64,000 bases of DNA from an uncultured Alphaproteobacteria bacterium (GTDB taxonomy: Bacteria > Pseudomonadota > Alphaproteobacteria > RF32 > CAG-239): NCBI GenBank assembly GCA_944390895.1, contig CALXRQ010000005.1, positions 983 to 64,982 on the forward strand, read 5' to 3'. Under the pieces are notes generated by a model, which saw only the letters and a list, made by a program, of their open reading frames with translations, was not told the DNA's origin and ran no database searches. Position 1 is the first letter of the stretch, and each line of letters starts with the position of its first letter. This document shows, piece after piece, positions 5,719-62,676 of the stretch. The translations under genes and the position numbers were made by a program.

Positions 5719-8109
5719 TTATTGCGCAGCCGAGTTTTCAAGCGGAATATTGTCATTGGCCGCGGCCGGAACCGGAGCGGGAGAAGAAACGGAAGCCGGC
5801 GCATTGTCAATCACGATGTTGAGTTTGTCACTGCTGTTGATATCGGCCGCCGGAACCTCCGTTACCGTTTCTTTGACCTCGGTTCCCTTGTCCTCAACCG
5901 GAATATTCAGCTTTTCAACCTTTGCTTCCGGTTCCTCGACAATCTCATTGCTCATCAGTTTGGCTTTTCCGACCACCACTTCCTCCGCGGCGGGAACCTC
6001 ATCCGCATTTCCCGCTGCATTTTCTTCGGAAACGCTTTGCGCCTGCGCTTCGTTCTCGGCGGCCGCCGGAACTTCCTGCGCATCGACACCTTTTGCCTCA
6101 TCCTGAGTTTTTTCCTCCGCCGGAACGCTCTCGGTCTGTTCGGGTTCAACCGCGCCCTTCTCTGCTGCCGGAACTTTTTCTTCTTTGGCATAAGGCGTAA
6201 GATTCCGGGCTTTCATCCACTGTTGATACCATTCATCAAACTTAACAATGGCGTTATCGACCGTTTTTTCATCCAAATTCAATGTGTTGAGAGAAGCTCG
6301 GAGTTCGTTCAAAACGTCTATATGCAGGTTGAATTCCTTAAGCTCCGGACATTTTCCCTTCCGGTACAGATACTGTTTCAAAACGTTCGGTGCCGAACAA
6401 ATGTCATACCGAACTCTAAAATTCTTTCTCAGCGGATCTCTGATGGCCATATCGACATATTTCTGATTTTTCAGCTCTTCGATAAAGTTCTTGCCCGCAA
6501 GAGAAGTCATGCCGTTAATGCCGCTGACGCCTTGAATGACCACGACCGTCTTTTGTGCGGACGGACTGTTGTTCAGATAGTCGATAAACCGCTGCAACCG
6601 TCCGTATACGCAGCGCAGCTGATCGGCATAAGCCTGGCGCTTGTTCTTGTCGCTGACCTTTTTAACCCAGGCCAGATCTTTCTTGTTCTGCCATTTGCCG
6701 ATCGGCTTCACATTGCAAAATTCATCATAAATAAACGTATTGGCCGGTATATTGAGCGAAACGAAATATGCCTTGTTGCCGTTGTCCTTGGCAATGTCCT
6801 TTTCCAGAATGTCAAGCATATCCAAAGAGTTTTTGACGTCGATGTTTTTGTAAGAAACGCCGACCATCGGAAACGTCTCCACGTCAATAAACGGACGCAG
6901 GATATTGTAAGAATAGGCAAAATCGTCAAACAGCCCCCAGCTTTCCAGCCATTGCGCCATCAAAACCTCTATTTTTTCCTTCTGGCTCAGGTTCATACCG
7001 TCAAAATCTATCGGCAAGCCGTTCTTTTCCACACAGCGGTCGACAACCATTTCATTGTTGACATAACACATTTCTATACCGCCGCTCTGGTAAGCGTTGA
7101 TGCCGTACTTTGCTCTCTTAAAGGTGTCAAACAGCTTGTTTTCTTTCAAATATACATATTTTGTCGTTAAGTTGTTGAATTTCCAAAAACTGCTGACGCT
7201 GATATTGCTGAGCAGATATTCGTTCAAAGACTTGGAATTGTTATTATTCAGCGCCTGTGCGATATTATTGGCCGGATCCAGATCATTGACATAAGTGTGG
7301 GGATAGAGTGTAAAGTTGTTTTTGCCGTAAAAACCGAGCATAATGTCAAGTGTCTCCCGCAGACTGTCATATTCCTGAGATTTTTTTTGTACTTTGGCAG
7401 CCACATCGTTCAGATAATTATACGAACCGACCGTCGGCAGCGCTATATAAACAAACTTCTTTCCCGGCTTGGCGTTGGGAATAATAACGTCGTCTTTGAC
7501 AACCCTGAACTTTGCATGTTCGCCGCTGTCCATAAACTGTGCAAAAACCACTCCGCCCATGCACAACATCAGCAAAAAGACAAAATACGCAATCACCTTT
7601 TTGGAAGCATAAGTTACAAACAGGAAAAAGATAAAACCAATGACGCCGGCCACCACCAGATGAGAAACATAGTTAAACAACAGCCCCAGATCCTGCGAAA
7701 TATAGGTCGCCGCCAGTCTGGAAAGCATCGAGTTCTTGTCAAATGCGGCAAACTGATTGAGCATGATAATCACAAACAGCCCCACAGCGCCTGCCGTCAA
7801 CAGGTTCTGAAAGAACGAAGAAAAAGAAACGATATACATCAGAGCAATCGAAAAAACGAAAATTCCGATCAGAATATACAAAACTTCCGGCGTAAAAAAC
7901 GTCATTGAGGAAAACATATTATAGCTTCCCGCCCCGGCAAAGATAAGAAAATCAATACTGAGCAGGCAGGCAATAATCATTGCTTTCTCTACCCAGTCAA
8001 TCAGATATACGGAAAAACTCCTTTTTTTGGGCTTCTTTACCGTCCGGTAATTCTTGTCGGCAGTGACGGCCATGCTGGTTTTGGTGTCATCAATAATAAC
8101 GTCGTGCAT
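5719..8109 (-). CDS. large polytopic membrane protein; periplasmic domain has sulfatase/phosphoethanolamine-transferase-like architecture (tentative); acidic Pro/Ala/Glu-rich tail
   Basis: GAGGAAAGAG RBS. About 5 N-terminal TM helices, then a roughly 450-aa soluble domain, then a roughly 150-aa low-complexity acidic C-terminus. The function is a guess from architecture only. Confidence 0.6.
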   Translation of the reverse strand: MHDVIIDDTKTSMAVTADKNYRTVKKPKKRSFSVYLIDWVEKAMIIACLLSIDFLIFAGAGSYNMFSSMTFFTPEVLYILIGIFVFSIALMYIVSFSSFFQNLLTAGAVGLFVIIMLNQFAAFDKNSMLSRLAATYISQDLGLLFNYVSHLVVAGVIGFIFFLFVTYASKKVIAYFVFLLMLCMGGVVFAQFMDSGEHAKFRVVKDDVIIPNAKPGKKFVYIALPTVGSYNYLNDVAAKVQKKSQEYDSLRETLDIMLGFYGKNNFTLYPHTYVNDLDPANNIAQALNNNNSKSLNEYLLSNISVSSFWKFNNLTTKYVYLKENKLFDTFKRAKYGINAYQSGGIEMCYVNNEMVVDRCVEKNGLPIDFDGMNLSQKEKIEVLMAQWLESWGLFDDFAYSYNILRPFIDVETFPMVGVSYKNIDVKNSLDMLDILEKDIAKDNGNKAYFVSLNIPANTFIYDEFCNVKPIGKWQNKKDLAWVKKVSDKNKRQAYADQLRCVYGRLQRFIDYLNNSPSAQKTVVVIQGVSGINGMTSLAGKNFIEELKNQKYVDMAIRDPLRKNFRVRYDICSAPNVLKQYLYRKGKCPELKEFNLHIDVLNELRASLNTLNLDEKTVDNAIVKFDEWYQQWMKARNLTPYAKEEKVPAAEKGAVEPEQTESVPAEEKTQDEAKGVDAQEVPAAAENEAQAQSVSEENAAGNADEVPAAEEVVVGKAKLMSNEIVEEPEAKVEKLNIPVEDKGTEVKETVTEVPAADINSSDKLNIVIDNAPASVSSPAPVPAAANDNIPLENSAAQ

Positions 8110-8171
8110 ATCTCTTTCCTCATTATTTTAATTTGACATCTTATATAAGCACAAGTTTGGTACCATTTAAA

Positions 8172-8207
8172 GAAAAAGCCTCAAGATATATACAATCTTG
8201 AGGCTTA
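8172..8207 (-). terminator. rho-independent terminator of rpsD
   Basis: aagcctcaaga / tcttgaggctt 11-bp stem with a T-run on the minus strand. Confidence 0.8.
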
Positions 8208-8225
8208 TAAGACCATCTGTCCTTA

Positions 8226-8840
8226 TTATCTTGAGTAGAACTCGATAACCAGGTTCGGTTCCATCATTGCGGCATAAGGAATGTCTTCAAACTTAGGAAC
8301 AAAAGAATATTTTGCGGTCTTCTTTTTGCTGTCGACTTCCAGATATCCCGGAAAATCTCTGTTTCCGGCTTCCAAAGCGGAAATGACAATCGGAAGTTCT
8401 TTGGATTTCTCGCGGATTTCGATAACATCGCCGGCTTTTACCATATAAGACGGAATGTTAACTCTTTTTCCGTTGACCAGAATATGTCCGTGGTTGACAA
8501 ACTGGCGGGCGGCAAAAATCGTCGAAGCGAATTTTGCTTTGTAAACCAGGTTATCCAAACGGGATTCCAACAGGCCGACCAGGTTTTCGGCAGAGTCGCC
8601 GCCTCTTCTGACAGCTTCTACATAATATTTGTGAAACTGTTTTTCAGAAACGTTGCCGTAATAAAATTTCATCTTTTGTTTTGCAATCAGCTGCTCGCCG
8701 TAGTCAGTCGGTTTTTTTCTTCTCTGACCATGCTGACCCGGGGCATAAGCTCTCTTGTCCAGAGGAGACTTGGTGTTTCCCCAGATATTTTCGCCGAAAC
8801 GGCGGTCTAATTTTTTCTTTGCAGAAATGATACTTTTCAT
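8226..8840 (-). CDS. rpsD: 30S ribosomal protein S4
   Basis: 204 aa. The N-terminus ([11 protein letters not shown]...PGQHGQRR) and the S4 RNA-binding domain are recognisable. Confidence 0.95.
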
Positions 8841-9047
8841 TAAAATTTTCCTTTTAATTGTTTTTTACGTTATTGTCCCGGTAGTTTTGGTTATTGCTCC
8901 AAACGGGGTTTTTTGCCCTCATTCCCGGAAGTATCCTGATAACTACAACAAAAAACCGATAATTTCAAGCAATATTTTAAAAATCTGCTGGATTTTATCG
9001 CCAAATTTGCTAAAATGCAGCAAAACAAAAAGGATTTAGGAGTTTCA

Positions 9048-10805
9048 ATGTCTTACGATATATTATTTCAGCAGGCTCTGACCGCGCATCAGGCCGGACG
9101 CTTTGACGAGGCGGAACATCTCTATCGCCAGATTCTGGAAACGGCGCCCGAACATCCGGACATTCTTAACCTTTTGGGGTTAATCGCTCAGGAAAAAGGC
9201 GTCCATAACGAAGCCGTTGAACTTTTCTACAAAGCCATTCAAAAAGCTCCTAAGCATGCTCCGTTTTATTTCAATCTGAGCTTTTCTCTTGATGCTTCGG
9301 GACACCCCGTCGAAGCGCTTGAAAACCTGCAAAAGGCCATAGATCTGGATCCCGACGTCAAAGAGTTCTACAACCAGACCGGCATCATCCAATACAAATC
9401 CGGCCATGTCAAGGAAGCGCAGGAAGCCTTTCTCAAAGCCGTCAGCCTCGATCCTGACTACAGCGAAGCCAAAAGCCATCTGGCCATGACCTACTTTGCA
9501 AGCGACCGAGCCAAAGCTGTTTCTTTTCTGGAAAACATTTCCGCGCAATATAAAGAAGAAGCGCTCAGCCGTTACTTTCTGAGCACCATTTTCTTTGACG
9601 AACGGCGCTTTGACGAAGCCGAAAGATACGCCCGGGAAGCAGAAAAAATCACGCCGTCCTCCGACGAAATAAAAACCGTGCTCGGATTGATAGCCGCCCA
9701 AAAAGGAAACGTTGACGACGCCAGACTGTATTTTTCTCAGGCTGTCAACCTGAACTCGACTAACGTTCAGGCGCTGGTCAATCTGGCCAACATCGAAACC
9801 AATGACAAAAATTTTGAAGAAGCCGAAAAACATTACAAACGCGCCGCCGTTTTCGCCCCCGAAAGTCTGGATGTTCACCTGAATTACGCCAATATGCTCT
9901 ATCTTGCGGACCGAACCGCCGAGGCTCTGGAAGAATATCGCAAAGCCGTAATCATTAACCCCGCTTCTTCCGAAACCAGCAACAACATCGGCATTATCTT
10001 AAAAGACCTTAAAGAATATGAAGAAGCTCTGGCTCTGATGTTTAACGCCTTTTACATGGAACCCGAACGGGAAGAATATGCAGTAAACATTGCCGAAACG
10101 CTGGTCTTGTTCAGCCGCAGCGAACATGAAAAAGCACTGAATGCCGCCCAAAACTGGGCAACGCACGCTCCCGACAACGTTTTCGCCAAACACACGCTGG
10201 CCGCTCTCAAAGGAGAAAACATTGAAGATTCTGAAGTTTATAGCGAAAAGCTGTTTGACAATTTTGCTGGTAATTATGAGCTGGTTCTTAAGAAGATTGC
10301 TTACAGCCTTCCACAGCGCATTAGAGAGCTTGCGGGAAATGCTGCGGGTACCGTTATCGATTTGGGCTGCGGTTCGGGACTGGTGGGACAAGCGCTCAAA
10401 AACCCGCAAAACCAAATAATCGGCGTCGACATTTCTCAAAATATGCTCAATCTTGCCGCCGAAAAGAAAGTCTATGCCAAACTAATCAAAAGCGGCATTC
10501 TTGAGTTTATGCAGACCAAACCTCAGGCCGACCTGATTGTAGCCGCTGACGTCTTCGGCTATCTCGGCGCACTGGAAAACATCATTGCCGCGCTGAAAGG
10601 ATATAATATCTGCTTTTCGATCGAGCTGCTTTCCGACCGTCCGGGATATCAGATTTCAGACAACGGGCGTTATCGCCACAATCCGCAATATGTCGAAAAA
10701 CTCCTGCAAGACAACGGCTTTTCGCAAATCAGCAAATATGAAACCGTTTTGAGACAGGAAAACGGCGAAGACGTCAAAGGCCTGATTTATTATGCCAAAC
10801 CCTGA
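9048..10805 (+). CDS. TPR-repeat protein fused to C-terminal class I SAM-dependent methyltransferase
   Basis: AGGAG RBS before the ATG at 9048. Multiple TPR-like 34-aa repeats. C-terminal VIDLGCGSGLVG is SAM motif I. Confidence 0.8.
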   Translation: MSYDILFQQALTAHQAGRFDEAEHLYRQILETAPEHPDILNLLGLIAQEKGVHNEAVELFYKAIQKAPKHAPFYFNLSFSLDASGHPVEALENLQKAIDLDPDVKEFYNQTGIIQYKSGHVKEAQEAFLKAVSLDPDYSEAKSHLAMTYFASDRAKAVSFLENISAQYKEEALSRYFLSTIFFDERRFDEAERYAREAEKITPSSDEIKTVLGLIAAQKGNVDDARLYFSQAVNLNSTNVQALVNLANIETNDKNFEEAEKHYKRAAVFAPESLDVHLNYANMLYLADRTAEALEEYRKAVIINPASSETSNNIGIILKDLKEYEEALALMFNAFYMEPEREEYAVNIAETLVLFSRSEHEKALNAAQNWATHAPDNVFAKHTLAALKGENIEDSEVYSEKLFDNFAGNYELVLKKIAYSLPQRIRELAGNAAGTVIDLGCGSGLVGQALKNPQNQIIGVDISQNMLNLAAEKKVYAKLIKSGILEFMQTKPQADLIVAADVFGYLGALENIIAALKGYNICFSIELLSDRPGYQISDNGRYRHNPQYVEKLLQDNGFSQISKYETVLRQENGEDVKGLIYYAKP

Positions 10806-20907: not shown

Positions 20908-20936
20908 ACAAAAAAGCCGCCCCAAAGGACGGCTTG
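20908..20936 (-). terminator. rho-independent terminator of fucO
   Basis: gccgccc / ggacggc stem with T-run on the minus strand. Confidence 0.7.
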
Positions 20937-20951
20937 CGAATATTGAATTTT

Positions 20952-30445: not shown

Positions 30446-30446
30446 T

Positions 30447-30477
30447 AAAAAGGTCTGCTTTATGCAGACTTTTTTTT
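30447..30477 (+). terminator. rho-independent terminator after tRNA-Val
   Basis: gtctgc / gcagac stem followed by T8. Confidence 0.8.
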
Positions 30478-30479
30478 AT

Positions 30480-30660
30480 GGCTGAGAGGTTCTAACTCAA
30501 AAGAGCTCGCTAAGTAAAAAACACCGTTGCTCCGGTGTTTTTTGTCTGCAAGAGCAACAACATCTTAATTTTGAGAAAAAAAACTAAATATTTTTGAAAC
30601 AAAATTTAGATGCTGTTGTACCAAATAAGCGATAGCTTATGTACCTCTCAGCATTCACCA
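30480..30660 (+). repeat. tRNA-Val-linked structured insert with 10-bp terminal inverted repeats derived from the tRNA 3' strand
   Basis: gctgagaggt (30481..30490) is the perfect reverse complement of acctctcagc (30643..30652). The right end repeats tRNA nt 30428..30445 with 4 changes. The internal core at 30509..30551 is shared with the tRNA-Ser units. Confidence 0.7.
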
Positions 30661-41524: not shown

Positions 41525-41643
41525 TAACTTCTCCTTGTTAGAAATACATCGTCAGCACCAGATATAATCGCGAAATATCCGGCTTAAAGAGAAACAGAAT
41601 AAATAAAGTTTTAACCATAAAAACTTTTTGTCCATTTTCACAA

Positions 41644-41672
41644 TTGACACCCCTGGAATATTGTGATATATA
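41644..41672 (+). promoter_or_regulatory. candidate sigma70 promoter (TTGACA-17-TATATA with TGn extended -10)
   Basis: Read directly, about 95 nt upstream of the 41766 ATG. Confidence 0.5.
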
Positions 41673-41765
41673 TTTCAGCAATCAACTACATTTATGCTTA
41701 TTACTATGAACCGTGATGTTATTCGCAAGCCATACTGATAAGCTTCACTTAAAAAAATTTACAAA

Positions 41766-42200
41766 ATGAAAAAATTAGTAAAAAAATTCATGAGTATGCC
41801 TAACGAAGCTAAAGCAAACCTCTTGGACGGTACCGGTCTGCTGGGAATAATAGCCGTCTTGGCATTCGTTGTTTTCGCCGAAGAAAGCGTTGTCGCCAAC
41901 TACATGCTCGGTTTCTTTGGTTTTCTTTTGAGTTGCGGTTCCGTAATTATGGTCCGCGAAGCCAAAAACTGCAAAGAAGGCACCGTTCCGCGAATGATGA
42001 TTCGTTCCGCTTTCAGCATTACGGCTTATGCTCCGCTTATGTGTATCCTTGAAAACTGGCTGGAAAAATTCGATCTGACAGTTATGCCTTTTGCCGGCTG
42101 GATACTGGGAAGCCTGATGATTTGGTTTATTTTTTCTCTGGCGGCTTTTATATTTATAACCGCTGCAGAAGCATTTGCCAAACGAAGAACCCGCTGCTGA
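41766..42200 (+). CDS. hypothetical polytopic membrane protein
   Basis: 144 aa with 4 hydrophobic helices. No SD seen and no family recognised. Confidence 0.5.
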   Translation: MKKLVKKFMSMPNEAKANLLDGTGLLGIIAVLAFVVFAEESVVANYMLGFFGFLLSCGSVIMVREAKNCKEGTVPRMMIRSAFSITAYAPLMCILENWLEKFDLTVMPFAGWILGSLMIWFIFSLAAFIFITAAEAFAKRRTRC

Positions 42201-42271
42201 TAACAACACATTTATTTTCCGATACCTTGGCGCTAAACAACGCCAAGGTATTTTCCTAAACAAAACTCATT

Positions 42272-42475
42272 ATGCTGTTTATTGAAAGTAAATTGATTAT
42301 TTTCGCAATCGGTTTCATTACGGTCGGCATCATCGGCCTGATTATGGACCACAATTGGGACAAACGCCACGGCACGCGTTATGACCGCTATGGCAATGAA
42401 ATATCCGGCAATACAACTGGCGGACTTATATTCCTATGGTGTTGTTTCGGAGGAATCCTGCTTTTTCTCTTATAA
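42272..42475 (+). CDS. hypothetical small membrane protein
   Basis: 67 aa with two hydrophobic helices. A terminator follows. Confidence 0.4.
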   Translation: MLFIESKLIIFAIGFITVGIIGLIMDHNWDKRHGTRYDRYGNEISGNTTGGLIFLWCCFGGILLFLL

Positions 42476-42482
42476 ACACTCG

Positions 42483-42517
42483 AAAAAAACGGCATCCTTC
42501 AAGGACGCCGCTTTTTT
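42483..42517 (+). terminator. rho-independent terminator
   Basis: cggcatcc / ggacgccg stem followed by T6. Confidence 0.7.
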
Positions 42518-42624
42518 AATTACACAATTTGCACAAAACAAAATAAATACCTAAAGTTTTCATTTGACACTTAACCTTTTATAAAATAACCTGATTATGC
42601 AATGGTTGATTACCGTTGTGAGGT

Positions 42625-42758
42625 TTAGAACCCTCTGTTGATAGTTGTCTGCTTAGCAGACGTAAAAAGCTACCTTTTGGTCTTTATGACTGGAAGGTAG
42701 TTAATAAGGTATATGCATATACCAAATACACTACACTATTCTATCAAATAGGTTCTAA
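42625..42758 (+). other. multi-hairpin structured element in the leader of the OMP gene (cis-regulatory RNA or MITE-like insert)
   Basis: Outer helix 42625..42644 / 42741..42758 encloses three hairpins, including a perfect 16-nt palindrome ggtatatgcatatacc. Confidence 0.5.
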
Positions 42759-42820
42759 CTTCCAGTCGCCTCTCATCAAGGCGATTTAGTTTTATATATA
42801 AAATGAAAGGAAGTTATTAA

Positions 42821-43537
42821 ATGAACAAAACTTTACTCTTGGCGGGCGTCGCTTCCGCTTTATTTGCTTTCAATGCAAATGCTATGGATTTTAATCAATA
42901 TGTTTCTGCAAAAGGTGCTTTTGTAAAAATGGAAAATGATGCTGGTGTAAATTCTCATTATTCTTTCAGCGGAACAAATCACCATTATAATAAAATTTTG
43001 GATAACAACCACAAAGATGATGTCTGGGGAATTAGATTGGCTTATGGTGCTGCGACTCCCGTAAAATACGGTAAATTAAGAGGTGAATTGGAATTTGGCT
43101 GGAATGAAGACGCAAAAGATTCTTCCACAAATGCTTTTAAGGTTATTACTCCAGCAACGGTAAATGCAACAACGGAAACATCTGTTTATTCAGCAATGTT
43201 GAATGTTTATTACGATATTGAAACAGGAACCAAATTTACACCTTATGTTGGAGCGGGTTTAGGTTATGCGAGAGTCGAAAGCAAAGCATCATTGCCTGAT
43301 AATGGTGTAAGCCAAAAGTCAAGTGATAACAATTTGGCTTGGCAAATTGGTGCCGGTGTATCTTATGCTATGACGGACAATATTTCATTTGATGCAGGTT
43401 ATAGATATACTGATTATGGAAATGTTAAAGATTCAGGACAAATGAATGTTGCTCCATTCAAAAAGCCGTTTGATGTATCATCAAAATATGATGTCACATC
43501 TCATGAATTCTTACTCGGTGCCAGATACTCTTTCTAA
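42821..43537 (+). CDS. outer-membrane beta-barrel protein (OMP_b-brl/opacity-porin family), low-GC
   Basis: AAAGGAAG RBS, signal peptide ...FNANA, beta-strand pattern, C-terminal GARYSF. Roughly 32-35% GC versus roughly 50% nearby. Confidence 0.8.
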   Translation: MNKTLLLAGVASALFAFNANAMDFNQYVSAKGAFVKMENDAGVNSHYSFSGTNHHYNKILDNNHKDDVWGIRLAYGAATPVKYGKLRGELEFGWNEDAKDSSTNAFKVITPATVNATTETSVYSAMLNVYYDIETGTKFTPYVGAGLGYARVESKASLPDNGVSQKSSDNNLAWQIGAGVSYAMTDNISFDAGYRYTDYGNVKDSGQMNVAPFKKPFDVSSKYDVTSHEFLLGARYSF

Positions 43538-43567
43538 TCACCGACCAACAAAATAGTTTTTTTTCAC

Positions 43568-43598
43568 AAAAAGGGCTGTGTAAATCACAGCCCTTTTC
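43568..43598 (+). terminator. rho-independent terminator
   Basis: gggctgtg / cacagccc stem followed by T4. Confidence 0.7.
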
Positions 43599-43641
43599 AC
43601 AAAAATAAGTAATTTTAGTTTAAAATCTCTTTTCATCACAA

Positions 43642-44030
43642 AAAAGCCGCCATCAAAGGCGGCTTGCAGTGGCGGAGAGTACAGAATGGCTAAGTAAAAA
43701 ACTGACCAATGTCAGTTTTTTGTCTGCAACATCTCAGAAATGCCGGTAAGCAAGGAAAGCGACAGCAACCGCAGCGAGCCATGAATTTCTGAGGCGTAGT
43801 CCTGTCTCCAATACAAAAGCCGCCATCAAAGGCGGCTTGCAGTGGCGGAGAGTACAGAATGGCTAAGTAAAAAACTGACCAATGTCAGTTTTTTGTCTGC
43901 AACATCTCAGAAATGCCGGTAAGCAAGGAAAGCGACAGCAACCGCAGCGAGCCATGAATTTCTGAGGCATAGTCCTGTCTCCAATACAAAAGCCGCCATC
44001 AAAGGCGGCTTGCAGTGGCGGAGAGTACAG
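43642..44030 (-). repeat. 173-bp tandem repeat (2 full units + 43-nt partial unit merging into tRNA-Ser 3' end)
   Basis: Units 43642..43814 and 43815..43987 differ at one base (43796 G / 43969 A). Each starts with the tRNA terminator hairpin plus the antisense of the last 15 nt of tRNA-Ser. Confidence 0.9.
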
Positions 44031-44103
44031 GACTCGAACCTGTGCATCGGTATTCCCGATGACGGATTAGCAATCCGCTGCATTACCACTCTGCCAACTC
44101 TCC
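44016..44103 (-). tRNA. tRNA-Ser (anticodon GCU), class II with long variable arm
   Basis: Hand-folded: acceptor GGAGAGT/ACTCTCC, anticodon loop TTGCTAA, variable arm CATCGGGAATACCGATGC, T-arm ACAGG-TTCGAGT-CCTGT, encoded CCA. 88 nt. Confidence 0.9.
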
Positions 44104-44184
44104 ATTTGTGGTACGGAGTTATATTTATATGATGTTTCAAACAACGTCAATAGCTTTTTTCAGCTTTTGAGCAAATAAATATCC

Positions 44185-44964
44185 CTACTCCATAACCATG
44201 GTCAGATATGTCATAAAAATAAACCCTAAAAAGACGGCAAACGCCGATTTCTCGGTTTGTTTGGTCCCGTAAGTTTCCGGCAATATTTCATTAATGACCA
44301 CAAACAACAGCGTACCGCCCGCCATAGCCATTCCCAACGGCACAATCTTGTCGCTGTAATCCATGGTCAACAACCCGATAACCGCGCCCAGCGGCTGCAC
44401 CATACCGATCAGCAGCGCCGTCAGCGCCGCTTTCAGCTTGCTGCTGTGCGCCGCAACCAATGATATGGCTATTGTCAGCCCTTCCGGAATATTGTGCAGT
44501 GCAATGCCTATTACCAAACTGTCCGGATTCATAAAGTCTTCCGCGCTGTATGCCACACCGACGGCCAAACCTTCGGGCAGTTTGTGCAGCGTAATGGCTA
44601 TAATGAACAACCAGGCCTTTTGCAGACTGAAATGCAGCCCGTGCTGTCCCATGTTATTATGCTCATGCGGCAGCAGTTCATTCAAAATCCACACCAGCGC
44701 CACGCCGGCAAAAACCGCGCCGGCATACCAAAACCCTGCCACATGGATATCCGGATCAAACTCAGAAATCCGCTGCATCGCCGGCACCAGCAAAGCAAAG
44801 AACGAAGCCGCAAGCATAATGCCGGCCGCCAGATTCAGCATAAAATTAATGTCATCCTGCGAATATTTCTTTTTCAGAAAAATCATAAAACCGCCGACAC
44901 CGGTAACCAGTCCCGCCACCATCGAGGCCAGCAGCCCCTGCATAAAAACACCGTCAAACATCAA
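44185..44964 (-). CDS. zupT: ZIP-family zinc transporter
   Basis: Two HN(I/L)PEGL motifs, 8 TM helices, roughly 259 aa like ZupT. Confidence 0.85.
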   Translation of the reverse strand: MMFDGVFMQGLLASMVAGLVTGVGGFMIFLKKKYSQDDINFMLNLAAGIMLAASFFALLVPAMQRISEFDPDIHVAGFWYAGAVFAGVALVWILNELLPHEHNNMGQHGLHFSLQKAWLFIIAITLHKLPEGLAVGVAYSAEDFMNPDSLVIGIALHNIPEGLTIAISLVAAHSSKLKAALTALLIGMVQPLGAVIGLLTMDYSDKIVPLGMAMAGGTLLFVVINEILPETYGTKQTEKSAFAVFLGFIFMTYLTMVME

Positions 44965-55182: not shown

Positions 55183-58100
55183 TCAAAACTTCCAATTAAC
55201 GCCGGCATCTATCTGCCAGCCGCCGTCATCTTCAATGTATTTATTGTAACGGCTGTAGAGGTTAAACTGCTGATACTGATATTCGGCACCGACCGAGAGA
55301 ACCGTGCGGTTACGCTGCACCTTATAACTGTTCAGCCCGTATTCGCCGGACATTCCAGCCATTCTGGCCGAAAGATTGGCATAAGGATCGCCAAATTCAT
55401 GATAGAAAGTGCCGCCGGCTCGCAATCTGACTTCATGATTTTCACCCAGCGCGAAAGTTTTCTTGGCATAAAGACCTATACCGGCCTCAACCGACAAATT
55501 ATTGGCGGCGTCAATATCAAGCTTGCCATCTTCCTTCATATCGTCCTGATAAAGTCCCAAAATGTTAAATTCGATAATCGGCTCAAAAACCAGCGCTTCC
55601 AAATCAATCTCCCGGCGCAGTTCATTGGCAATGCCGTAATAATAAACGTCCGTGTCCGCCCCGAAAACGTTTCCGTCGGCATAACGTCGGTAATCGCCCC
55701 AGCCGTATCCCAACCGCGGCGTAGAAATAAAACTGTAGGTATCGTCCTGATACAATACCGGCGCAAAAAGCTGAACAATGTTTTCATCCCGGCTGCCGCG
55801 ACCGTCATATTTGCTGTCAAACCGGGTATAACTCAAACCGAAACCATAACGCCAATAAGCGTCATATTTACGGTCAAAAATACCATAGACCGTGCTGACA
55901 TCGTCTTTATAGCCCGCCAATGTCGCCGTTCCGTCCTGCTCGCGGTACATATAGTCATACCCGACAGTTGCGCGTTCTTCCTTGGTATCGGTATTGTTCA
56001 ACACCGTATTGTTGATATTGCGGTTCAAGCTCTTGATCACATCCAGATTCTGCTTGGCAAAATTCGGAAAGAAATCCAGCCCGAGTTCGGTTGAAGCCTT
56101 GGCATTCAAACTACTGTGTGCCCCGGCTGTTTTCAAATCGTCATACAAATCTACGCCGTTGCCGGCAACATAGTTTTCTTCCAGAAATGCCGCCGCCGAC
56201 TTATTGTCAATAATATCGTCAAACGCCTTTCTGTTCATAACCACATCCTGACTGCCGTCGCCGCCGTCCTTAAGCGAAGCCTCAAACATATAAGACGCCG
56301 ACGTCAACTCAATCCCCGTGTCTTCACCGACAAAAGCCTTTTCGCTGACATAGGAATCTTCATTGCTTCCGGTAACAATGTTGTTGGAAGCATATACCTT
56401 TCCGCTGATTTCCGGAGCATTAAAAGTTCCGCCTTTCATCAGATAAACGCTGCCGTCGCCAAAACTGTTCAAATCCAGCGCAGCGTCAGAAGTCGTACTG
56501 CCGGCGTTTTCATAAATGGCGCCGTTTTCAAGACAGATGAATGAATCGCACTGCGAGGCTCCCGTATAAGCTTCCGAACCCACTTTTTGCGACACATTGG
56601 TCATATTCGCATCAGTAATTTTTATGGTACCGTTGTTCTGAATGGCCGAACCGATGCCGCTGGCATACATAGCCGTATTATTGTCGCCTTGCATAAGGAT
56701 CGTACCGTCGTTAATTGCCCTGGCTGCCACCGTAATAACGCCGTTTTCGTCTTTGAGCGAAGCATTGTCATATTCTACCTTCATACCATAGGCGTTGTTG
56801 GATTTGACAATCAACTCTCCGCTGTTGGTTATGGTTCCGGCACCCGACAAAGACATCCCGACCACGCTGCCGCTGTTTTTGTAAGCCGCATTAATTTCAA
56901 TCTTGCCGGAATTGGTCAGCGTTGAATCCGTAGACGTAATCGTCGACGAATCATCTTCCGTTTCGGCAAAATAATTGCCGGCTCTCATGGCGGCAATCGT
57001 TTCTGCTTTGCCGTCATTATCATTAATGGTAATTGTCCCCTCATTGGTCAGCGTACCGGCGTCTTCCGCCCACATCGCCGCCAGTCTGGCTGTCGCCGCC
57101 CCGTTGTTGTCTAAAACGATTTCGCCCTTTTCGCCGTTTGTTGCTGTCATGGTGCTGAATACCTTCTGATCCTCAATCACCAATCCGGTTTCCGTATACA
57201 TGGCGTAAGCCTGCCCCGAAAGACTTCCGCTGCCGGCCGTATCGGAAACAACCGCAAGCTTAGCCTTGTTGTCAAAGGTAACGGAAGCAGAATTTTCTCC
57301 GTCATTACGTCCAATCATTCCTGCGGAAGAAACGTTCATCACACCGCCCTCGGCATTGGTAACCGAGGCCGAAGTTGTCGTCACGCCGATTTCGGCCGTC
57401 ACAGTACCGCTGTTTTCCACAGACCCCGAAGCCAGAGAGAAACCATATTGGCTTGCCGTAATCGTTCCCGCATTTTTAAATGTGCCGGATCCGGTTGACA
57501 TCATAGCTGCTTCTCCGGTCGCCGTAATATCAGCGCCTTCGGCATTGGTCAGACTGCCCGAAGACGTGCTCATGCCGACCGAAGCCGTCACCGTACCTTT
57601 GTTTTCTCCGGAAGAAGAAGCCATAATGCCCGTGCCTCCGTCTGCGGAAACGCCGCCTTCATTGACCACCGTATCGCCGGAAAGGCCGTTGCCGTCGGAT
57701 ATAACGGTTCCCTTATTGGTGACGCTGCCACCCGAAATCGCCGTTCCGCTTCCCTTGATTTCCACCAGCGCGCCCAATCCGTTGGTAACGCTGCCGCTCG
57801 CCGTATAAATGCCGGTGCCGCCGTTGGTCATGGTAATGGTGCCGTTGTTCTCAACATCGCCGCTGCTGTCGGTCTTAATACCGTAGTTTCCGCCGCTTCC
57901 GCTGCCGCTGACTTCGATTGTGCCGTTGTTAATCTGCTTGCCTTCACCAATTTCCATACCGACACCGCCGCCGGAAACGGTTATTTCCTTATTATTGGTA
58001 ATATTACCCTTTTTCACATAAATGCCGGTGCCGCCCTGCCCCGAAGCAACCACATTGATTTTTCCGTCATTGGTAACGTTTGCCTCTTCAGAAACCCAGA

Positions 58101-59256
58101 TGCCGGACGCAGCGCCGGCCAGATCGCCGGTTCGCGCGCCGCTGACGATAATCTTGCCGCTGTTGTATATGTCGCCTTTTCCCCACAACCAGATACCGGT
58201 ACTGTTATCCCCGGCAATGTCAATAACGCCGCTGTTGGCAATCTTGCCGACCGTAGACGAGAAAATACCCATGCTCTGCGGCGCGATAATCTTAATCGTC
58301 CCGGCATTATTAATATCTCCGACCGTGGGATTGGCGGCATCAACCAGACAAGACGTATTTCTCGGATCGTAAATGTCAACAATACACGACATTATGCCCT
58401 TGGCATATTTGTTGGAAGACGTAATGGTAATATCACCCGTATTGTAAACATATCCGTTTTTGGAATAAATGGCTCCCCAGTGGTCAAGAGACACGTCTGC
58501 GGCCGAATTGTTGGTGACGGTTATATCCTTGTTATTGATAATGTTTTTATTCTCCGGCATATAAAGGCCCCAGTAGTCGCTTTGGCTGCCGCCGGCTGTT
58601 TCCACCACATCTTTGTTGATATTCTCGGCCACGACATACGGCGGAGCATTAACGCCGTTCATTCCGTCAATGTTTTTGACTTCATCGTCATCATCGTCGC
58701 TGTTGCTGCTCAAAATCAGCGCCACCGTACCGCCGACCAGCGCAACGCCGCCGATGGTCCACGCCGTTGTCGACGAAATCAGCGGTTCTTCATGAGGATC
58801 ATAGGCGATATAACCCAGATTCCGGTTGGAAGACATTTGTTCTATATTGGCAAAATCCTTGGCATTATACTTATATGCCTTGGACGTATTTTGCGCCGCA
58901 GCGGCCTGTTGCCTGTAGACCGGCGGCCGTCTCAACCCTTCGTTAAAAGCGATTTTTCTTTCGTCGGGAATACGGGAAACACAGGAATGGTTGATATCGG
59001 CTCCCAAACTTCTGAATGTTCGGAAAGCCGTATAGTCACTCTTCCAAACCGCAATGCACAAACCGGTATTGCCCTGAGCGTCAACGCTGTCTATGTCAAG
59101 CCCGCGATTGACGGCGTCGGCCAGAACTTTGCTTTTGCCCTGAGCCGCAAAATTATACATGGCGTCAAAATTGGCCGGCGCCAGCCCCGCATCCGCCGGA
59201 CTCGCCCATAAACAAAGGCCCAGAACGCCTGACATTAAATTAATTTTGCGAACCAA
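55183..59256 (-). CDS. autotransporter (type Va) with Gly-rich beta-helix passenger, N-terminal ankyrin repeats and C-terminal beta-barrel
   Basis: C-terminal roughly 280 aa barrel ending GVNWKF. Passenger is full of G(S/T)GI / NxG repeats. N-terminal signal peptide (TTG start; alternative ATG at 59235). D.QGNTGL..AV......GADINH ankyrin signature. Confidence 0.85.
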   Translation of the reverse strand: MVRKINLMSGVLGLCLWASPADAGLAPANFDAMYNFAAQGKSKVLADAVNRGLDIDSVDAQGNTGLCIAVWKSDYTAFRTFRSLGADINHSCVSRIPDERKIAFNEGLRRPPVYRQQAAAAQNTSKAYKYNAKDFANIEQMSSNRNLGYIAYDPHEEPLISSTTAWTIGGVALVGGTVALILSSNSDDDDDEVKNIDGMNGVNAPPYVVAENINKDVVETAGGSQSDYWGLYMPENKNIINNKDITVTNNSAADVSLDHWGAIYSKNGYVYNTGDITITSSNKYAKGIMSCIVDIYDPRNTSCLVDAANPTVGDINNAGTIKIIAPQSMGIFSSTVGKIANSGVIDIAGDNSTGIWLWGKGDIYNSGKIIVSGARTGDLAGAASGIWVSEEANVTNDGKINVVASGQGGTGIYVKKGNITNNKEITVSGGGVGMEIGEGKQINNGTIEVSGSGSGGNYGIKTDSSGDVENNGTITMTNGGTGIYTASGSVTNGLGALVEIKGSGTAISGGSVTNKGTVISDGNGLSGDTVVNEGGVSADGGTGIMASSSGENKGTVTASVGMSTSSGSLTNAEGADITATGEAAMMSTGSGTFKNAGTITASQYGFSLASGSVENSGTVTAEIGVTTTSASVTNAEGGVMNVSSAGMIGRNDGENSASVTFDNKAKLAVVSDTAGSGSLSGQAYAMYTETGLVIEDQKVFSTMTATNGEKGEIVLDNNGAATARLAAMWAEDAGTLTNEGTITINDNDGKAETIAAMRAGNYFAETEDDSSTITSTDSTLTNSGKIEINAAYKNSGSVVGMSLSGAGTITNSGELIVKSNNAYGMKVEYDNASLKDENGVITVAARAINDGTILMQGDNNTAMYASGIGSAIQNNGTIKITDANMTNVSQKVGSEAYTGASQCDSFICLENGAIYENAGSTTSDAALDLNSFGDGSVYLMKGGTFNAPEISGKVYASNNIVTGSNEDSYVSEKAFVGEDTGIELTSASYMFEASLKDGGDGSQDVVMNRKAFDDIIDNKSAAAFLEENYVAGNGVDLYDDLKTAGAHSSLNAKASTELGLDFFPNFAKQNLDVIKSLNRNINNTVLNNTDTKEERATVGYDYMYREQDGTATLAGYKDDVSTVYGIFDRKYDAYWRYGFGLSYTRFDSKYDGRGSRDENIVQLFAPVLYQDDTYSFISTPRLGYGWGDYRRYADGNVFGADTDVYYYGIANELRREIDLEALVFEPIIEFNILGLYQDDMKEDGKLDIDAANNLSVEAGIGLYAKKTFALGENHEVRLRAGGTFYHEFGDPYANLSARMAGMSGEYGLNSYKVQRNRTVLSVGAEYQYQQFNLYSRYNKYIEDDGGWQIDAGVNWKF

Positions 59257-61071: not shown

Positions 61072-61434
61072 TTATTCAACAACGCTGATAAATTTAGAAT
61101 AACGTTCCTTGCATTTTTCAGACTGCTGTAAGGCAACGTCACGCATAATCTGATTCTCGTACATTTCTAAAAATTTCTCATCCGGTTCAACTGTCAATAT
61201 CCCGCTTTCCGCATCGTAATTAAGGCTCAAACCGATTAAAGGCGCCGGATATTCACAGTCGCACAACTGTTTATAATATTCTTCCGCAATCTTAAATTTT
61301 GCGGCAACAACTTTGCCCTGACTTTCGGTTTCGTCATTTTTAATATTTTTAACCGCAGTCTCCGTCCGAATGTAATTTTCAATCAAAATCGGCGAAAAAT
61401 CATCTGTTGCAGACCATACGTCACTCATTTCCAC
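61072..61434 (-). CDS. orphan acidic 120-aa protein
   Basis: ORF between a terminator and the tRNA-Arg terminator. No family recognised. Confidence 0.5.
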   Translation of the reverse strand: MEMSDVWSATDDFSPILIENYIRTETAVKNIKNDETESQGKVVAAKFKIAEEYYKQLCDCEYPAPLIGLSLNYDAESGILTVEPDEKFLEMYENQIMRDVALQQSEKCKERYSKFISVVE

Positions 61435-61448
61435 ACCTTTAACTTAAG

Positions 61449-61473
61449 AAAAAACCGCCCTGAAAGGCGGTTT
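61449..61473 (-). terminator. rho-independent terminator after tRNA-Arg
   Basis: Minus strand: aaaccgcc-tttca-gggcggttt followed by a T-run. Confidence 0.75.
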
Positions 61474-61478
61474 AGAAA

Positions 61479-61555
61479 TGGCGATCTCGAGAGGATTCGA
61501 ACCTCTGACCCACAGCTTAGAAGGCTGTTGCTCTATCCAGCTGAGCTACGAGACC
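61479..61555 (-). tRNA. tRNA-Arg (anticodon UCU)
   Basis: Hand-folded: acceptor GGTCTCG/CGAGATC (one G-U), anticodon stem ACAGC/GCTGT with loop CTTCTAA, T-arm AGAGG-TTCGAAT-CCTCT, encoded CCA. 77 nt. Confidence 0.9.
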
Positions 61556-61566
61556 ATTAGCCGAAC

Positions 61567-61772
61567 AATATTCTTCTTGGTCGGGGCAGCAGGATTGTAA
61601 TTCCCAATTCACCACTTTTCCCGGTATCTTTATCAAAACTGCTCCGAATTGGGCCCCTTTCGTTCAAGCTTGCTTCGCTCGGTAAACCTTACTCGCAACT
61701 TTCACCGACCCTAACGGTTCGCATCCTGACTTAAGTTTTAATAATATTCTTCTTGGTCGGGGCAGCAGGATT
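61567..61772 (-). repeat. 30-nt direct repeat (tRNA-Pro 3' 19 nt + 11 nt flank) bounding a 176-bp insert between tRNA-Pro and tRNA-Arg
   Basis: aatattcttcttggtcggggcagcaggatt occurs at 61567..61596 and 61743..61772. The second copy is the real tRNA-Pro 3' end. Confidence 0.85.
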
Positions 61773-61830
61773 CGAACCTACGACATCTTGCTCCCAAAGC
61801 AAGCGCTCTACCAGGCTGAGCTATGCCCCG
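61754..61830 (-). tRNA. tRNA-Pro (anticodon UGG)
   Basis: Hand-folded: acceptor CGGGGCA/TGCCCCG, anticodon stem CTTGC/GCAAG with loop TTTGGGA, T-arm GTAGG-TTCGAAT-CCTGC, encoded CCA. 77 nt. Confidence 0.9.
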
Positions 61831-61971
61831 AAAAAATTCAAATAATTTCCGAACACGGCATCTCCACCGCCGGCAGCAGGCCCGCTAAGCGTCGCCCTTT
61901 TTGATAACAAAACGTAATTTAGCGAATTTATTTTATTTTGCAAGCACTTTTTACTAAAAAAATGTTTCGGA

Positions 61972-62676
61972 TTATATCAACCCGCCGTCACGAAAACTGT
62001 AATAGCCGTAACGACTGATGACAACATGGTCATGCAGTTCAATATTCATTGATTCCAACGCCGCTTTCACGTTTTTGGTCACCTCGACGTCCGCCTTGGA
62101 CGGCGTCGCATCTCCGGTCGGATGGTTATGAACCATAATAACGGCGCAGGCTTTCTTGTCCAAGGCCGCCCTCACCACTTCGCGGGGATGAATAGACACG
62201 TGGTTAATCGTCCCTTTTTGCTGAATTTCCTGATCAACGACCTGATTTTTGGAATTCAGATAAATAATCCTGAATTCCTCCACATCCTGATAACACATGC
62301 TCATCCGGCAATAGTCAACCAACATATCCATATTGCCGATAACCGGAAGATCGGCGCCTTTCAGCTGTTCCCAGGACATTCTCACCGCCGCGGCACTGAC
62401 CATCTTCAGTGCAAAAACCGAATTTTCGCCAATCCCGTCCACCTCAAGCAGCTCAGACTGCGGAGCGTTTATCACGTCGGCAAAGCTTCCGAACTTTGCA
62501 ATCAGCGCCTTGGCAATAGGTTTAACGTCGCGCCGGGGAATAGCGATCATCAGATAGGCTTCCAACAGCTCATAATCGGCCATATCCCTGCCGCCGCCTC
62601 TCAAAAAGCGTTCGCGAACCCGGTGGCGGTGTCCTTCGCTGCTCAAATTCGGTTTGGCATTTTCTGTCATCAACAA
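61972..62676 (-). CDS. radC: RadC-family JAB-domain protein
   Basis: HhH region (GIGE) and JAMM motif HNHPTGD..PS..D. Confidence 0.85.
   Translation of the reverse strand: MLMTENAKPNLSSEGHRHRVRERFLRGGGRDMADYELLEAYLMIAIPRRDVKPIAKALIAKFGSFADVINAPQSELLEVDGIGENSVFALKMVSAAAVRMSWEQLKGADLPVIGNMDMLVDYCRMSMCYQDVEEFRIIYLNSKNQVVDQEIQQKGTINHVSIHPREVVRAALDKKACAVIMVHNHPTGDATPSKADVEVTKNVKAALESMNIELHDHVVISRYGYYSFRDGGLI

Follow-up and report, generated by a model that had tools for sequence, protein, structure and literature searches.

The subject of this study is a short tandem array beside a tRNA gene in an uncultured Alphaproteobacteria bacterium (lineage RF32; CAG-239). The DNA that was analyzed, hereafter the window, is a stretch of 64,000 nt (contig CALXRQ010000005.1, positions 983 to 64,982, assembly GCA_944390895.1). 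On its minus strand, a gene for tRNA-Ser(GCU) is followed at the 3' side, as far as position 43642, by the arrangement A-B-A-B-A (43642-44030), with a length of 43 nt for A and 130 nt for B (Table 1). Tandem Repeats Finder (TRF) assigned to this region a period of 173, 2.2 copies, and 99% matches. A repeat search returned three exact copies of A, which start at 43642, 43815, and 43988. It also returned two units of 173 nt with 99% identity, between which there is a single mismatch, G43796 versus A43969. These results confirm an initial sequence-only reading of this DNA, which had described near-identical 173-bp tandem units that differ at one base. As detailed below, we firmly conclude that the units are two tandem copies from a new structured, tRNA-linked repeat family.

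Repeat A consists of the last 15 nt of tRNA-Ser, including CCA, and a 28-nt trailer, in which a G+C-rich hairpin of 8 bp forms the terminator. The string from the tRNA 3' end had been reported to recur, and the antisense 10-mer TGGCGGAGAG is indeed found at 43670, 43843, and 44016, and nowhere else in the 64-kb window. A terminator scan identified six sites against 1.0 expected; all three A hairpins, which had also been noticed before, are among them. The last A hairpin is followed by a tract of six U's (UUUUUUGUG), whereas the internal ones are followed by UUUUGUAUU. This longer U tract makes copy 3 of A the likely final stop. A sense-like copy of the tRNA 3' strand (agtcctgtctcc), again pointed out in the sequence-only reading, is real; on the strand of the tRNA it represents an inverted copy, GGAGACAGGACT. 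The flanks of a Ser unit consequently read GGAGACAGGACT, core, CTGTACTCTCCGCCA. Each unit also contains a Cys/Arg-rich open reading frame (ORF) of 30-35 aa (MARCGCCRFPCLPAFLRCCRQKTDIGQFFT, MARCGCC...; 43690-43782 and 43863-43970, minus strand). We considered and rejected the possibility that this ORF encodes a small peptide. MARCGCCRFPCLPAFLRCCRQKTDIGQFFT is not kept in orthologous units: the one at locus L019 reads ATG TAA, and the one at L016 has no ATG (loci fetched for comparison are identified by L numbers).

The conserved part of B is a core of ~122 nt that contains two long hairpins, P2 and P3. A scan of metagenome contigs with the conserved motif yielded at least 120 loci. Among the matches listed, ~90 are true relatives, and the others are chance matches that lack the hairpin. 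From 45 non-redundant cores we prepared an alignment (A1), derived a structure with RNAalifold, and built a covariance model (R1; 122 positions, 36 pairs). With filters off, R1 detects three members in the window, two at tRNA-Ser (97.4 and 96.4 bits) and one at tRNA-Val (87.3 bits); the next best match scores 19.5 bits. Over the fetched loci, the same model finds at least ~105 members above 40 bits. Rfam 15 gave no match in the region except the tRNA, and a literature search returned no description of such elements.

The fold of the core is well supported by covariation. RNAalifold reports compensatory changes in 25 of the 36 pairs across the 45 cores. The fraction of paired cells (93.4%) exceeds that of shuffled alignments (73.4%; 0 of 500 reach the observed value) and that obtained with slid partners (38-50%). 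Cells with double changes number 337 against 93 after shuffling, and the covariation score is 0.554 against 0.178. Since U88.G130 and G90.U128 are invariant, and since pair 84/135 alternates between G.U (23 sequences) and G-C (19 sequences), the fold is specific to one strand. P3 combines an A tract, a G+C hairpin, and a T tract, the form of a bidirectional terminator, in every member. Two structures that had been picked out from the window by eye, a bidirectional hairpin at 43696-43721 and a 9-bp stem at 43733-43741 / 43785-43793, correspond to the apex of P3 and the base of P2, and both are supported by covariation.

A second element of structure involves the ends of the unit. The inverted tRNA copy pairs with the re-created tRNA end to form a closing helix, which appears in both minimum free energy (MFE) and centroid folds. 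When a single unit is folded alone, this helix forms and the CCA remains free; the MFE z score is -1.3, so that the folding energy is not exceptional. The closing helix covaries, with CAGG/CUGU in the window, L013, and L015 and UAGG/CUAU in L019, L016, and L020. In L019, the neighboring tRNA retains CUGU while the unit has UAGG/CUAU. This observation indicates that the two ends of the unit track each other and not the tRNA. Duplex energies between flanks proved confounded as a general test for closing helices, because the terminator is repeated on both sides.

Table 1. Features of the tRNA-Ser(GCU) array and of other units in the window (R1, covariance model of the core)
Feature	Position	Strand	Evidence and remarks
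tRNA-Ser(GCU)	44016..44103	-	ARAGORN; Rfam tRNA 62.4 bits; last 15 nt (44016-44030) begin repeat A
Repeat A copy 1, 43 nt	43988..44030	-	terminator hairpin 43990-44011, tail UUUUGUAUU
Unit 1 segment B, 130 nt	43858..43987	-	R1 match 43856-43977, 97.4 bits, E 1.9e-20; covariation; fold; inverted tRNA 3'-strand copy GGAGACAGGACT 43971-43982; P2 base 43906-43914 / 43958-43966; P3 apex 43869-43894
Repeat A copy 2	43815..43857	-	tRNA 3' end re-created (CUGUACUCUCCGCCA) + terminator; pairs with inverted copy, closing unit 1
Unit 2 segment B	43685..43814	-	R1 match 43683-43804, 96.4 bits; differs from unit 1 at 43796; inverted copy 43798-43809; P2 base 43733-43741 / 43785-43793; P3 apex 43696-43721
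Repeat A copy 3	43642..43684	-	re-created tRNA 3' end + terminator, then longer U tract UUUUUUGUG
tRNA-Val(UAC) unit	30446..30660	+	R1 87.3 bits, E 4e-18; terminator 30447-30475; inverted tRNA-Val 3'-half copy 30480-30498; core 30503-30629 (minus strand); degenerate direct copy of tRNA-Val 3' end 30643-30660
tRNA-Pro(UGG)-tRNA-Arg(UCU) spacer unit	61564..61772	-	repeat search; same architecture, unrelated 143-nt core; tRNA-Pro last 19 nt + 14-nt trailer at 61740-61772 and 61564-61596
Strain-variable islet	41616..43641	.	directly downstream of array; opacity-family outer membrane protein 42821-43537; two small membrane ORFs beside it

The tRNA-Ser(GCU) locus could be followed through related organisms. 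Using the neighboring ZupT-like gene, we fetched 20 orthologous loci, all from uncultured gut Alphaproteobacteria; the protein from L002, a locus of the same species, is 98% identical. Homologous units occur at this locus in at least six related species. In L019, L016, L020, L013, and L015, segment B is present once 3' of tRNA-Ser(GCU), giving A-B-A. In L002, B is reduced to a 47-nt remnant. Several loci lack B altogether; one of them is L009, which is closely related to L019 and shares its trailer, so that L009 is empty where L019 is filled. In L004, the core is flipped relative to tRNA-Ser(GCU). The trailers differ completely among species, while the two A copies within one genome match. Orthologous Ser(GCU) cores are 60-83% identical next to trailers that cannot be aligned, and they show compensatory changes such as ATG/CAT versus ACG/CGT. 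Finally, L031, an independent contig with identical flanks that ends inside the tRNA, has one unit where the window has two.

All three window copies adjoin tRNA genes. Over the whole family, at least 17 tRNA species have a member next to them. Members are located either 3' or 5' of the gene, both orientations occur, and the flanks are specific to the adjoining tRNA. The adjoining genes are those for tRNA-Ser(GCU/GGA/UGA/CGA), Val(UAC/GAC), His, Met, Arg(CCG), Asp, Leu(GAG), Phe, Thr(GGU), Pro(GGG), Glu(CUC/UUC), and Ala(CGC). On the 3' side, the core lies on the tRNA strand at Ser(GCU, GGA, UGA, CGA), Arg, Phe, Met, and Leu and is inverted at Val(UAC), at the Ser gene of L004, and at His, Met, and Asp. 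On the 5' side, the core is inverted at Thr, Pro, Glu(CUC, UUC), Val(GAC), and Ala.

The polarity of the flanks relative to the tRNA is constant: an inverted partial copy lies proximal to the tRNA and a direct copy lies distal. Units on the 3' side begin with an inverted copy of the T-arm/acceptor 3' strand, which sometimes includes antisense CCA and is often perfectly Watson-Crick where the tRNA has a G.U pair. The direct copy of these units starts at tRNA position 58-64, in the T loop, and reaches CCA. In L036, L046, L117, and L140 it stops there after 14-22 nt, and the trailers on the two sides differ; in the window, L019, L093, and L106 it continues through the whole terminator, up to +40 nt. 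On the 5' side, the direct copy begins in the leader (-4 to -10) and extends as far as position 20-25, in the D loop, or 36, in the anticodon loop. Here the order is direct copy, core, inverted copy of the next tRNA segment, short spacer, and intact tRNA. For example, the inverted copy in L096 corresponds to Thr 34-48 with 15/15 nt. The motif TTGGTA precedes both the Thr and the Pro junctions. Because the direct copy restores everything between a tRNA loop and the gene end, the tRNA gene always remains intact.

Several observations bear on the question as to whether these units move. Cores at different tRNAs can be 78-86% identical, compared with 60-83% for orthologous Ser(GCU) cores. That cores at different tRNAs can be closer than some orthologous ones implies that the core moved between tRNA loci. 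Tandem arrays recur in independent assemblies, with spacings of 197 (L070), 200 (L093), 208 (L073), and 223 (L090). In L066, L082, L023, and L059, units in direct orientation bracket accessory DNA without a recombinase. The islet in the first three of these loci lies by tRNA-Ser(CGA) and contains an effector of the type VI secretion system (T6SS) that resembles VgrG3 (8858-11133 in L066; spacing 2.05 kb). In L059, a 5.1-kb glycosyltransferase islet is located between units 1183-1480 and 6639-6935. When the orientation of the units was compared with replication by way of GC skew, 36 of 52 loci were positive, but the sign mostly follows the orientation of the tRNA, and many of the loci are orthologous.

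The remaining units of the window are of two kinds. In the tRNA-Val(UAC) unit, the core is oriented relative to its tRNA opposite to that of the Ser units, and the flanks read GGCTGAGAGGTTCTAAC, core, ACCTCTCAGCATTCACCA. In the spacer between tRNA-Pro(UGG) and tRNA-Arg(UCU), the tRNA-Pro end recurs together with its trailer at a distance of 176 bp downstream. Near the start of this unit there is an inverted piece that resembles the T arm, CAGGATGCGAACC. We also considered this Pro unit as a diverged member of the R1 family. It gave no R1 match and no BLAST similarity, its fold is not significant, and only the architecture is in common. The Pro unit thus appears to belong to a different family from the Ser/Val core. 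Both units had been overlooked in the sequence-only reading.

Directly downstream of the array, 2.3 kb that separate it from an aldo-keto reductase gene are missing in L002, which has ~65 nt at this place (7048-7111). A segment at 42483-42520 is an 84% copy of the tRNA-Ser terminator of L002. Elsewhere in the window, a terminator-like sequence at 20908-20937 (ACAAAAAAGCCGCCCCAAAGGACGGCTTGC, repeat family D7) is 83% identical to the tRNA-Ser trailer and may be a chance match or a remnant. A large autotransporter of 1357 aa with internal repeats (D3, D17) is encoded at 55183-59256. Together, this protein and the islet with its outer membrane protein suggest a neighborhood that is variable and rich in surface proteins.

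The nearest known counterpart of the array is a tandem repeat with the same layout in Escherichia coli. At the tyrT locus (L001, K-12 NC_000913 1286000-1288200), 178-bp units that are annotated as rttR/RtT and contain the small ORF tpr are repeated 3.1 times; each unit ends in the last 19 nt of tRNA-Tyr. Like the Ser units (173 bp, 2.2 copies), RtT units are tandems of ~175 bp located 3' of a tRNA gene, and each terminates in a copy of the 3' part of that tRNA, T loop through CCA (19 nt in RtT, 15 nt here). Both kinds of unit contain an inverted T-arm/acceptor copy near the 5' part, which is GGGGAAGGATGAGAAGC in E. coli. In each RtT unit as well as in the tyrT-tyrV spacer, the T arm of tRNA-Tyr is present as an inverted copy (~19/22 nt), and a direct copy starts in the T loop. 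These junctions obey the rules seen in the present family. A structured interior lies between the two copies. In the consensus of Rfam family RF00391, the inverted copy GGGGAAGGAUGAGAAGC and the direct copy (T-loop ~59 to CCA) form a closing helix, as they do here. The further copy of RtT in the tyrT-tyrV spacer may be compared with the unit in the Pro-Arg spacer. Both systems also include a short basic or Cys-rich ORF that is doubtful as a gene (tpr, 'protamine-like'; MARCGCC...).

Despite this correspondence in layout, no relation between the sequences could be detected. RF00391 gave no match at or above its gathering threshold (45 bits), nor any with E<=10, in 43000-44700 and 61300-62000. 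As a positive control, the same model finds the four E. coli units with 133-137 bits. R1 in turn gave no match in the E. coli tyrT locus. Homology to RtT was rejected, as there was no model match either way and alignment scores fell within those of shuffles. An RtT-like stretch spotted by eye (TAAGGTT..CGAGCGAA) was not significant. We conclude that the units are RtT-like in layout and not members of RF00391. Unlike RtT, which within the E. coli locus examined is confined to tyrT/tyrV, the present family is multi-locus (at least 17 tRNA species, both sides, both orientations) and includes a hairpin with A and T tracts. The function of rtT is still called unknown in the literature.

Membership in this family, the structure of its core, its association with tRNA genes, and its polymorphism among relatives were all observed directly. 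The reading of its origin that we favor, with confidence a little above even, combines an old non-autonomous module that is recognized as a single strand and inserts into tRNA loops with a recent array formed by unequal recombination and, at this locus, with read-through RNAs that resemble RtT. As a mobile module that is recognized as a folded single strand, the core would in the course of evolution have reached one tRNA gene after another. Its insertion would take place in a tRNA loop or beside one and would duplicate the end of the tRNA. The insertion at Ser(GCU) would be old and maintained by selection. The single-unit state A-B-A, as in L031, L019, L016, and others, could then give rise to A-B-A-B-A if the 43-nt A repeats recombined unequally or slipped. 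This expansion would be recent, since only 1 of 173 nt differs between the two units. At this locus the core and the tRNA are on the same strand, and for this reason read-through of the weak first terminator would produce one RtT-like RNA of ~145 nt per unit. The helix UGGAGA-CAGGA / UUCUG-UCUCCG would close such an RNA, and CCA would form its 3' end; the RNA may be the reason why the element has been retained.

A number of observations weigh against this reading. With regard to mobility, no pair of cores at different tRNAs exceeds 86% identity, and near-identical copies at different tRNAs were not found. Together with the 43% identity between the Ser and Val cores of the window, this speaks against a recent burst. 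No unambiguous fresh insertion was seen among the loci compared, and the difference between L009 and L019 could equally reflect a deletion between 54-nt repeats. The single unit of L031 might make the second unit of the window an assembly difference. Direct repeats of 14-55 nt combined with an inverted copy fit no known transposition chemistry. No integrase, transposase, or reverse transcriptase was found among the 40 window ORFs at 17.6-64 kb or beside any of the copies examined. Long persistence at orthologous sites would be expected of a host function sooner than of a selfish element. The invariance of CAGAYAAAAA and TTTTTDCTTAGC is partly imposed by the search pattern, although both motifs also occur in seven members that were found without it (six Ser orthologues and the Val unit). 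With regard to the RNA, the core is antisense to the tRNA in about half of the contexts, and the terminator/promoter scan revealed no convincing sigma-70-like site for the unit. Finally, P3 resembles an intrinsic terminator, so that a transcript would have to read through it to contain the covarying lower stem.

A wider form of the same idea is that the units represent an unrecognized class of mobile structured modules that home to the T, D, or anticodon loops of tRNAs, with the Pro unit and E. coli rtT as members unrelated in sequence. On insertion, a module of such a class would rebuild the cut-off tRNA end, terminator or leader included, and an inverted copy would be left next to it. Movement would proceed via a folded single strand of DNA or RNA, driven by an enzyme or mechanism so far not associated with elements of this kind. 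We regard this generalization as tentative. The structure of E. coli rtT has been known since 1978.

Alternatively, the units could be a family of host small-RNA genes without mobility, that is, tandem paralogues of an RtT-like or 3' external transcribed spacer (3'ETS)-type RNA made from the tRNA-Ser transcript. An RNA of this kind would be freed by tRNA-processing enzymes that recognize the tRNA-like closing helix and CCA, and it would act through its conserved C/U-rich loop (UUUCCUUGCU). Tandem paralogues of small RNAs are common in bacteria. The covarying, strand-specific structure with its wobble pairs is consistent with this explanation, as are the weaker U tracts of the internal terminators and the long conservation of the orthologous locus while trailers diverge. 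A structured RNA with a tRNA-like 3' tail, which the sequence-only reading had raised as its alternative, also agrees with the closing helix, whose strands covary within a unit and whose arrangement is that of the curated RtT structure. The ends of such an RNA would resemble those of 3'ETS-leuZ, tmRNA, and mascRNA-type transcripts, which are defined by tRNA processing at an acceptor/T-like helix with CCA. In contrast to 3'ETS RNAs, which are single-locus spacers without a repeated mobile core, half of this family is antisense to the tRNA. The folded strand of many members is either antisense or located upstream, beyond a terminator-like hairpin, and in the L004 orthologue the core is flipped. 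P3, with its A/U tracts, should halt transcription too early for the covarying lower stem and the CCA end to be made. The lack of a promoter in the scan and the unremarkable folding energy of the unit are further difficulties, and the tRNA-specific flanks at 17 tRNAs, the presence/absence alleles, and the bracketed islets would remain unexplained. We consider a purely host-encoded RNA family the main rival of the favored reading, although it is less likely.

The sequence-only reading had interpreted the array as tandem integration or amplification of a non-autonomous element resembling a cis-mobilizable element (CIME) or a miniature inverted-repeat transposable element (MITE), with the tRNA 3' end as the att site of a tyrosine integrase. 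Part of this proposal stands, since the units do belong to a repeated, non-coding, non-autonomous family at tRNA ends with recurrent tandem amplification (L070, L093, L073, L090). The att reading is not supported. In this scheme, A would be an att core duplicated by integration, B the remains of the element's arms, and the array the product of tandem accretion. As in CIMEs and other integrative elements, the tRNA 3' end is duplicated around an insert (the 43-nt A includes its last 15 nt), tandem accretion occurs, and variable islets are found next to tRNA genes. Cargo DNA is bracketed next to tRNA-Ser in L066, the tRNA-Ser flank varies among strains, and the repeats of 14-22 nt in L036, L046, L117, and L140, with unlike trailers on each side, look like attL and attR. 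But in contrast to CIMEs, the core has no fixed orientation relative to the tRNA, an inverted tRNA copy is present, and some members are located 5' of the tRNA, where their junctions fall in the D or anticodon loop and the leader is duplicated. The unit is only ~130 nt long, and what is conserved in it is a single-strand core of covarying, strand-specific hairpins, not double-stranded arm sites. The direct repeat, moreover, often takes in the whole species-specific terminator.

The search for a recombinase is also unfavorable to the att reading. The sequence-only reading had noted that the window contains no integrase, and none was detected among the 40 ORFs mentioned above. No integrase was found beside the cargo islets either, and the islets of L066 and L059 contain no recombinase. 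Among 2.9 million viral contigs scanned, three matched the pattern; the one genuine match is on host DNA. This contig (L144) contains a Mu-like prophage (6909-10165; MuA-type transposase, S24-family repressor) beside tRNA-Ala(CGC), and the Mu-like transposase is the only recombination enzyme found on it. The family member is located on the host side of the prophage, between a 21-nt fragment of the tRNA-Ala 5' end and the intact gene. A link to a phage attP site or integrase was rejected, as this host flank is the sole genuine copy on a viral contig. From these observations, we firmly conclude that the CIME/integrase interpretation does not fit, and an origin as an att remnant is very improbable.

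MITEs and REPIN/PATE-type repeats share other properties with the family. They are small (<300 bp), non-coding, and multi-copy, their presence varies among close relatives, and they occur in either orientation and can bracket cargo genes. REPINs and the ends of IS200/IS605 elements also form strand-specific hairpins with compensatory evolution, as seen here. REPIN/PATE-type repeats are mobilized in trans by transposases such as RAYT or IS200/IS605 TnpA. No Y1/HUH transposase of either kind was found among the ORFs scanned at 17.6-64 kb of the window. Unlike MITEs, the units have no terminal inverted repeats of their own; their inverted repeats are local tRNA copies that change from tRNA to tRNA. 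Their direct repeats extend for 14-55 nt to the end of the tRNA gene instead of being a short target duplication of fixed length or lacking altogether. In contrast to both MITEs and REPINs, the association with tRNA loops is strict, the copies are old and conserved at orthologous sites, and no cognate transposase was found among the ORFs scanned. MITEs, REPIN/PATE repeats, and CIMEs each match in part, and each appears to fail in at least one defining feature that we examined.

The form of P3 raises the possibility that the units are bidirectional transcription insulators, in which P3 terminates transcription in both directions next to highly expressed tRNA genes and the remainder is a by-product of template switching during replication of the quasi-palindromic tRNA/terminator DNA. 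This explanation would account for the terminator form of P3 in every member and for placement in either orientation and on either side of the tRNA, and inverted plus direct duplications are typical of template switching. It leaves unexplained the invariant lower stem UUGCAGAY / RCUUAGC, the covarying pairs beyond the T tract, and the conserved P2 hairpin with its loop. Copies on the 5' side would block the tRNA's own promoter, and the tRNA's own terminator already precedes each unit. An insulator appears very improbable as well.

A trivial local duplication or an assembly artefact, to which the 99% identity of the units and the single unit of L031 might point, is scarcely credible, given that the one-unit state is still A-B-A with a conserved core, that homologous units occur at this locus in at least six related species and at many other tRNAs, that a base difference argues for two resolved copies, and that arrays at other loci are found in independent assemblies.

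The family now includes about a hundred sequenced members with a well-supported structure, clear junction rules, and natural presence/absence alleles. With this collection, tandem repeats of a tRNA end, until now a one-off curiosity of tyrT in E. coli, become a general phenomenon that can be tested. At a practical level, the units can break or collapse short-read assemblies beside tRNA genes. If there is a class of modules that home to tRNA loops, it would account for the structure of E. coli rtT. If the units are mobile, they would represent a new way to target tRNA genes without destroying them. If they function as RNAs, they would constitute a new family of tRNA-linked structured RNAs in uncultured Alphaproteobacteria that are abundant in the human gut. 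In either case, the elements mark hot spots of exchange for surface and competition genes, such as those for outer membrane proteins, T6SS effectors, and glycosyltransferases.

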